Assembly (NCBI RefSeq): GCF_000008565.1
Contig: NC_001263.1
Coordinates: 1,469,335-1,499,108, forward strand
DNA from: Deinococcus radiodurans R1 = ATCC 13939 = DSM 20539
GTDB lineage: Bacteria > Deinococcota > Deinococci > Deinococcales > Deinococcaceae
Direction: 5' to 3'
DNA: 29,774 nucleotides
The position numbers and the translations under genes were made by a program. A model generated the notes under the pieces. It made no database searches. It had not been told where the DNA came from and was given only the letters and a program-made list of their open reading frames with translations. Shown here piece by piece: positions 25,931 through 27,627 of this stretch (within the stretch, counting starts at the first letter, position 1; each line of letters begins with the position of its first letter).

Positions 25931-27493
<1,563 letters not shown>

Positions 27494-27506
27494 GGCCACT
27501 CCTTAC

Positions 27507-27543
27507 AAAAAATGTCCCCCGGAAGGTCTGAATCCTCCGGGGG
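27507..27543 (-). terminator. Attenuator terminator in the leuA leader
   Basis: The minus strand reads CCCCCGGAGG-ATTCAGA-CCTTCCGGGGG (27543->27516), then ACA and T6 (27512-27507). It lies 13 nt upstream of the leuA ATG region, immediately before the SD. Confidence 0.7.
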
Positions 27544-27567
27544 CTGGGATACGGGCTGCGTCCGCCG

Positions 27568-27615
27568 TCACTCCACCGGAGGAAGGCTAAGAAGAAGCAG
27601 GCCGTATGCAGGCAT
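27568..27615 (-). CDS. Candidate leucine leader peptide MPAYGLLLLSLPPVE (15 codons plus stop)
   Basis: ATG CCT GCA TAC GGC CTG CTT CTT CTT AGC CTT CCT CCG GTG GAG TGA, read by hand on the minus strand. Five Leu codons are present, four of them consecutive and four of them CTT. It lies between a -10-like box and the terminator. Confidence 0.55.
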   Translation of the reverse strand: MPAYGLLLLSLPPVE

Positions 27616-27621
27616 GGCCCA

Positions 27622-27627
27622 ACTGTA
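27622..27627 (-). promoter_or_regulatory. -10-like hexamer TACAGT, 6 nt upstream of the leader-peptide ATG (leaderless geometry)
   Basis: Plus-strand ACTGTA at 27622-27627. The same TANNNT plus 6-7 nt plus start-codon arrangement occurs at about 10 other genes in the window. I see no convincing -35. Confidence 0.4.

Follow-up and report, generated by a model that had tools for sequence, protein, structure and literature searches.

A conserved leader upstream of leuA in Deinococcus radiodurans: a probable leucine-sensing attenuator on a putatively leaderless transcript

Is the short, leucine-rich open reading frame (ORF) that precedes leuA in Deinococcus radiodurans R1 part of a device that controls this gene, and if so, of what kind? 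The question arises from a stretch of 29,774 nucleotides (nt) of contig NC_001263.1 (positions 1,469,335 to 1,499,108; hereafter the window), in which leuA, the gene for 2-isopropylmalate synthase, lies on the minus strand. An earlier reading of these letters alone (the original prediction) had proposed a ribosome-mediated, leader-peptide attenuator built on a leaderless mRNA. Here we find that this ORF, together with the region between it and leuA, is a real, conserved, leuA-specific cis-regulatory element. We consider it likely, on the strength of sequence comparison and modelled folding, that it acts as a leucine-sensing, ribosome-mediated transcription attenuator of leuA with a three-helix logic, probably on a leaderless transcript. 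For the window element itself we infer the transcription start site (TSS), the translation of the ORF, ribosome stalling and the response to leucine.

The leader ORF reads ATG CCT GCA TAC GGC CTG CTT CTT CTT AGC CTT CCT CCG GTG GAG TGA, and direct reading bears out the four consecutive Leu codons and the fifth CTT that had been noted there (coordinates of all features are given in Table 1). The codon CTT had been judged rare by eye. It makes up 37 of the 929 Leu codons (4%) in the 18 ORFs of the window with high G+C content at third codon positions (GC3), and given this frequency four CTT among five leader Leu codons is far from chance. As had also been described, no Shine–Dalgarno (SD) sequence precedes the leader ATG on the minus strand, and TACAGT stands 6 nt before it, a placement which implies a transcript that probably starts at or next to the AUG and is thus putatively leaderless. 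A sigma-70 consensus scan returned no promoter, a null result to be expected, since Deinococcus promoters have no conserved –35 element (PMC4007540). The terminator, too, is where it had been placed: its stem begins 24 nt past the leader stop and, by a terminator scan, comprises 10 pairs, eight of them G–C, after which follow ACA, TTTTTT and the SD and ATG of leuA. The 2 nt between T-tract and SD leave no room in the window for a separate leuA promoter, so that transcription of leuA must pass through the terminator.

The regions before leuA that we compared came from a genome scan with LeuA (at least six Deinococcus loci), a metagenome scan with the motif CCTCCGGTGGAGTGA-N15-45-CCCGGAG, and the contigs of LeuA homologues. 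In 20 Deinococcus sequences besides the window the same element stood directly before leuA, with the Leu-run ORF and the alternative helices kept, as the original prediction would have it. The carriers include D. phoenicis, D. saxicola, D. arenicola, D. geothermalis, D. maricopensis, D. sonorensis, D. altitudinis, D. piscis, D. caeni, D. hopiensis and D. deserti; they cover both LeuA clades, with LeuA proteins 65% to 89% identical to that of the window. The metagenome motif scan gave 12 matches, of which seven were true, all upstream of leuA, and five were chance occurrences inside coding regions that we discarded. A covariance model built from 19 leaders scored above 60 bits only at leuA leader sites in 381 kb of sequence. 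For D. peraridilitoris, Deinobacterium, Oceanithermus, Meiothermus and Truepera, in which ilvC stands directly before leuA, neither inspection of the loci nor the covariance model revealed the element. Among the carriers the upstream neighbour may be ilvC, a DUF2071 gene, a divergent aconitase-family gene or a TPR-GGDEF gene, and from this variety it appears that the element travels with leuA. The leader is conserved across most of the genus Deinococcus.

Two loci stand at the edge of this set. The leader of D. piscis (L097, ~992..1110; 21.9 bits) is divergent: its ORF, MFQTADQLLRCCSP and stop, has two Leu codons only (CUC CUA) and two Cys codons. A metagenome-assembled genome of the Deinococcales with 46% GC (L008) gave a weak 24-bit match to the model at 1009..1113, with a leader-like ORF (MKFSAKLLLALNPSRVAA and stop) followed by a terminator. 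Downstream of it, as far as 4533, lie two MNT/HEPN toxin–antitoxin-like pairs and a HIT gene, and then leuA, all on one strand; it looks as if cassettes had been inserted between the leuA leader and leuA.

Is the leader ORF translated? The pattern of change across the 21 sequences suggests so. A TAnnnT hexamer lies 6–7 nt before the leader ATG in every one of them, and the geometry seen in the window is therefore general. The ORF has 14–17 codons, two to five of which are Leu codons, and the Leu run is in frame in all 21 leaders. Upstream of the Leu run the length varies in one way only: a single whole codon is missing from some leaders (L002, L005, L025, L092, L102). A 1-nt deletion occurs solely 3' of the run (L003, L096), where the tail of the peptide becomes …LLRWSQA and the stop codon is shifted; the nucleotide motif CUCCGGUGGAGU is intact in both of these leaders despite the altered reading frame. 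Frame-preserving indels together with retention of the motif point to constraint on the start codon, on the in-frame Leu codons and on an RNA motif, not on the C-terminal part of the peptide. We also considered the PPVE tail as a peptide-level arrest signal and rejected it, because the nucleotide motif is kept where frame and peptide differ (L003, L096, L094, L095).

The leader RNA of the window, when free, is predicted to fold at –49.2 kcal/mol into a long helix, here called P1, followed by the terminator (z = –2.4 when the leader is taken as far as the leuA start). P1 joins the Leu-codon region to the post-stop segment, with CUCC-GGU-GGAG as its cap. We folded 20 leaders, and in 19 of them the free RNA had P1 plus terminator as its minimum-energy structure. 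The segment CCTCCGGTGG, which had been named as a competing partner of the terminator 5' arm, is indeed predicted to pair with it: the duplex has –19.7 kcal/mol as compared with –21.3 kcal/mol for the terminator. We then simulated the ribosome as a masked footprint with its A-site at a given codon. A footprint on the stop codon blocks the antiterminator, and the terminator forms in 20/20 leaders. When the A-site is set on the first Leu codon, the minimum-energy fold of the full-length leader switches to the antiterminator CCUCCGGUGG/CCCCCGGAGG in 12 of 20 cases; for transcripts that stop short of the terminator 3' arm it does so in all 19 leaders that could be evaluated. A strong G+C hairpin with a T-tract is present in all 21 Deinococcus leaders, the leuA SD lying from 2 to ~110 nt beyond the terminator.

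The helices have also left a trace in the alignments. On a plain MAFFT alignment, 82% of the cells of P1 plus terminator are paired, against 38–63% in slid controls. In an alignment-free partner-swap test, with the partner segment set from the conserved CCGG box, the Leu strand of each leader gained 3.6 kcal/mol from its own post-stop partner relative to partners taken from other lineages (one-sided Wilcoxon test over 13 lineages, p = 0.003). In a model-fitted alignment, nine of the 17 P1 pairs changed on both sides, and none of 500 shuffles reached the observed values. Over 19 sequences the terminator is paired in 94% of cells and the antiterminator in 85.7%, compared with 44–67% for a slid partner. 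Individual species give examples: in D. sonorensis CACUCCGG faces CCGGAGUG, with an A–U pair that is specific to the antiterminator, the U being bulged in the terminator; in D. piscis the antiterminator strand and both terminator arms have changed together (UUCUCC / GGAGAA / UUCUCC); and in D. maricopensis antiterminator and terminator arms likewise change together, UCAC with GUGA. The swap test and the model-fitted alignment support covariation of P1, a helix which would complete the classical 1:2 / 2:3 / 3:4 design. The core of the attenuator logic as first proposed is thus supported by conservation and masked folding, but the proposal had missed this covarying third helix.

The structural parts of a classical attenuator have counterparts here. 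A run of codons for the end product of the pathway precedes leuA in 21/21 leaders, an intrinsic terminator (10-bp stem and T6) lies between leader ORF and leuA, and P1 takes the place of the protector (1:2) helix that holds the regulatory codons. The antiterminator is mutually exclusive with the terminator as judged by prediction and conservation, its covariation being weak. Taken together, conservation, frame-preserving indels and masked folding, each over 20 to 21 leaders, support the reading as a Leu leader ORF with competing antiterminator and terminator.

On this reading, the first nucleotide of the transcript would lie at the leader AUG (27615) or beside it, and translation of the 15 codons by a 70S ribosome would begin at once. 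With ample charged Leu-tRNA the ribosome would reach the UGA and mask CCUCCGGUGG; after its release P1 would re-form and keep CCUCCGGUGG sequestered. With that strand out of play, the terminator (27543..27516) and its T-tract would form, and transcription would end 2 nt before the leuA SD. When Leu-tRNA is scarce, the ribosome would instead stall at the first Leu codons, codons 6–7 (CUG CUU, nt 16–21), and P1 would be prevented. Such a stall would leave CCUCCGGUGG just outside the ribosome, free to pair with CCCCCGGAGG before the 3' arm has been made, giving read-through into leuA. If there were no translation at all, P1 and terminator would form, so that the default state would be off.

Several results weigh against this attenuator reading. 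On the plain MAFFT alignment covariation is modest and double changes are few, which can be traced to the repetitive CUUCUUCUU strand slipping register between species; the strongest column covariation, in turn, comes from an alignment fitted to the structure and hence leaning towards it. The antiterminator is near-invariant, with one clean compensatory pair, and its support consists of conservation and complementarity. Under the stall mask, the window terminator fold is 3–9 kcal/mol more stable than the enforced antiterminator fold, from which it follows that read-through must be kinetic, with the antiterminator forming first. If the ribosome stalls at the third or a later Leu codon, the antiterminator strand is already hidden in part, a difficulty that had been foreseen and that the masked folds place at the third codon onwards. 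The window terminator has a 3-nt spacer (ACA) between stem and T-tract; in other species the T-tract begins directly after the stem or 1 nt on. Finally, leader-codon mutants of leuA/ilvB in Streptomyces coelicolor, as cited in PMC1262725, were inconsistent with classical attenuation, and look-alike leaders can therefore work differently.

The Streptomyces case leads to the alternative that survives best, namely that the leader ORF is translated but control differs from classical termination and antitermination and might be exerted through translation, mRNA stability or Rho, as proposed for the actinobacterial LEU element. For that element, a pseudoknot has been proposed in which the leuA SD is the partner of the Leu run (Seliverstov et al., 2005, PMC1262725); in S. 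lividans a leaderless 15-aa peptide, LeuL1 (MRFGLLLLSCRGEGL), precedes leuA without a typical terminator (PMC8079986). The resemblance is close: in S. lividans and in the window an ORF upstream of leuA, putatively leaderless in the latter, encodes a Leu-run peptide of 15 amino acids (aa), the Leu codons lie in a stem in both groups, and the peptides of S. lividans and Deinococcus (xxxFGLLLLS...) are strikingly alike. That actinobacterial leuA leaders with so similar a peptide have no intrinsic terminator, and that the window leuA SD adjoins the T-tract, would fit control by such means. In Deinococcus, however, all 21 leaders carry the G+C hairpin and T-tract, the alternative between antiterminator and terminator is conserved, and the partner of the Leu codons is the post-stop segment, not the leuA SD as the LEU element would require. 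We therefore regard control of this kind as quite unlikely here.

As a second alternative, the RNA alone could be the switch and directly sense a ligand, a protein or uncharged tRNA, in which case the short ORF would be incidental. The nucleotide conservation of the core CCUCCGGUGGAGU, even where the frame differs (L003, L096), agrees with it, and P1 with its apical hairpin is a compact conserved structure such as a switch might have. We nonetheless think it very unlikely: all sequences keep the ATG at the leaderless position, the in-frame Leu run and the one-codon indel, rare codons encode the cognate amino acid, and known aptamers are larger and more complex than this element. It also matches neither the T-box nor any other Rfam family. 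A cmscan of the whole window at Rfam gathering thresholds found tRNA only, and a permissive cmscan of 27400..27800 (E ≤ 10) gave, as had been expected, neither Leu_leader (RF00512) nor T-box (RF00230), with only sub-threshold chance matches (NsiR1, the His_leader terminator stem and others). Weakest of all, and in our view extremely improbable, is a constitutive terminator or insulator that ends a short spurious transcript, leuA being expressed from elsewhere: the need for CUUCUUCUU as a P1 strand could explain the codon choice without translation, the Leu run being a by-product of a pyrimidine-rich strand, and the terminator is thermodynamically dominant in the window, yet T-tract and SD stand too close together in the window to accommodate a leuA promoter, the element is tied to leuA whatever the upstream neighbour, and frame conservation and the conserved antiterminator would be left unexplained.

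How does the proposed leucine attenuator relate to systems already described? The original prediction knew of no precedent in Deinococcus–Thermus or on a leaderless transcript, but leaders of this sort have been described from Streptomyces (PMC8079986) and D. deserti (PMC4007540). For D. deserti, differential RNA sequencing is reported to place 47% of TSSs on the start codon, with the –10 element directly upstream and no conserved –35, and 14 putative leaderless leader peptides are reported before genes that encode aminoacyl-tRNA synthetases or serve the biosynthesis of amino acids, with attenuation predicted (de Groot et al., 2014, PMC4007540); the main text of that paper names only cysS and trpEGD among the targets. 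The present element resembles these leaders in genus, in its short peptide rich in the cognate amino acid, and in a –10 directly before the 5'-AUG (in the window, a TSS inferred from sequence), and the leuA locus of D. deserti carries the orthologous element. At L102 1057..1101 of that species a 14-aa gene, MFVYSLLLGVPPVE and stop, is annotated exactly on the orthologous leader ORF; no equivalent short gene is annotated in the other National Center for Biotechnology Information (NCBI)-derived Deinococcus loci that we examined. As a gene has been called on this ORF, MFVYSLLLGVPPVE is probably one of the 14 leader peptides.

With the enteric leu leader (RF00512) and the trp, his and thr attenuators the Deinococcus leader shares Leu codons in strand 1, the opposition of 2:3 and 3:4 pairing, and a predicted default of termination; like the enteric leu leader, it strings together four Leu codons, most of them rare. 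It differs from the latter in having no sequence or structure homology to it, no SD and probably no 5' untranslated region (UTR), a peptide of 15 aa, and a single controlled gene, leuA, rather than leuABCD. Unlike in enteric attenuators, the antiterminator strand sits inside the apical loop of P1 and not in the P1 3' strand. Mycobacterial polycysteine ORFs, which are leaderless, upstream and rich in their cognate amino acid as well, attenuate a downstream operon, with experimental evidence of amino-acid sensing (bioRxiv 10.1101/834739); they concern another amino acid and other genes, and are not known to have a conserved intrinsic terminator or antiterminator pair. Mechanism and leaderless form have thus both been described before, the leuA leader would be a well-supported but ordinary example of amino-acid feedback control, and current understanding is unchanged. 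The literature searched yielded neither a published structural model of this leader (P1, antiterminator, terminator) nor a comparison across the genus. The structural model and the 21-sequence alignment could seed a new RNA family, there being none in Rfam, and improve annotation. The leader would also be a convenient case for attenuation without a 5' UTR, where the ribosome loads only at the 5' end, directly behind RNA polymerase.

The peptide core FGLLLLS is common to S. lividans LeuL1 and to several Deinococcus leaders, e.g. MFVFGLLLLSRPPVE in L087. One might imagine a single ancient leaderless leuA leader whose terminator was kept in Deinococcus and lost in Actinobacteria and, as the ribosome loads at the very 5' end, an element that is at the same time a minimal attenuator without a pause-and-synchronise step. 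We think this unlikely; convergence of the peptide core is the simpler explanation, because the helix requires the Leu run, rich in pyrimidines, as one of its strands.

Table 1. Features of the leuA leader and leuA in window coordinates
Feature	Position	Strand	Remarks
Upstream box TAGACAAC	27655..27662	–	27 nt before the –10; relative position common to most loci
–10-like hexamer TACAGT (TAnnnT)	27622..27627	–	6 nt (TGGGCC) before the leader ATG
Leader ORF, 15 codons and TGA, MPAYGLLLLSLPPVE and stop	27568..27615	–	direct reading
Leu run CTG CTT CTT CTT, putative stalling site	27589..27600	–	codon reading
Fifth leader Leu codon, CTT	27585..27583	–	putative stalling site
P1 5' strand	27578..27611	–	holds the Leu codons; apex is the CUCC half of CUCC-GGU-GGAG
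P1 3' strand	27544..27574	–	GGAG, stop codon and next 24 nt
Antiterminator 5' strand CCUCCGGUGG (DNA CCTCCGGTGG)	27573..27582	–	leader codons 12–15
Terminator 5' arm CCCCCGGAGG	27534..27543	–	common to antiterminator and terminator
Terminator loop ATTCAGAC	between arms at 27534 and 27525	–	direct reading
Terminator 3' arm CTTCCGGGGG (RNA CUUCCGGGGG)	27516..27525	–	fold and terminator scan
T-tract TTTTTT	27507..27512	–	ACA (3 nt) between stem and T-tract
leuA SD AAGGAG	27499..27504	–	GT (2 nt) after the T-tract; TGGCC, then leuA ATG at 27493
leuA, 2-isopropylmalate synthase, 520 aa	25931..27493	–	Pfam HMGL-like, HCS_D2, LeuA_dimer; named homologues

Upstream of the leader promoter, the TAGACAAC box recurs across the Deinococcus leuA leaders at ~27–31 nt from the –10, with the variants TAGACGAC and CAGACAAC; its position is kept in L001, L002, L004, L005, L025, L081, L082, L086–L088, L092, L093, L098, L099 and L102. 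The distance to the –10 is too large for a –35 element. The box is possibly a candidate site for an activator, or UP-like, and if so it would add a second layer of control.

The genes around leuA in the window include a divergent upstream neighbour of ~371 aa (27762..28877, plus strand) and a downstream ORF of 555 aa (23233..24900, minus strand), both long high-GC3 ORFs with no Pfam match at E ≤ 0.001. The gene that follows leuA (24931..25860, minus strand) belongs to the chlorite-dismutase family (HemQ-like), whereas in most Deinococcus loci (L094–L096, L098–L100, L102) a small ABM-domain gene comes after leuA.

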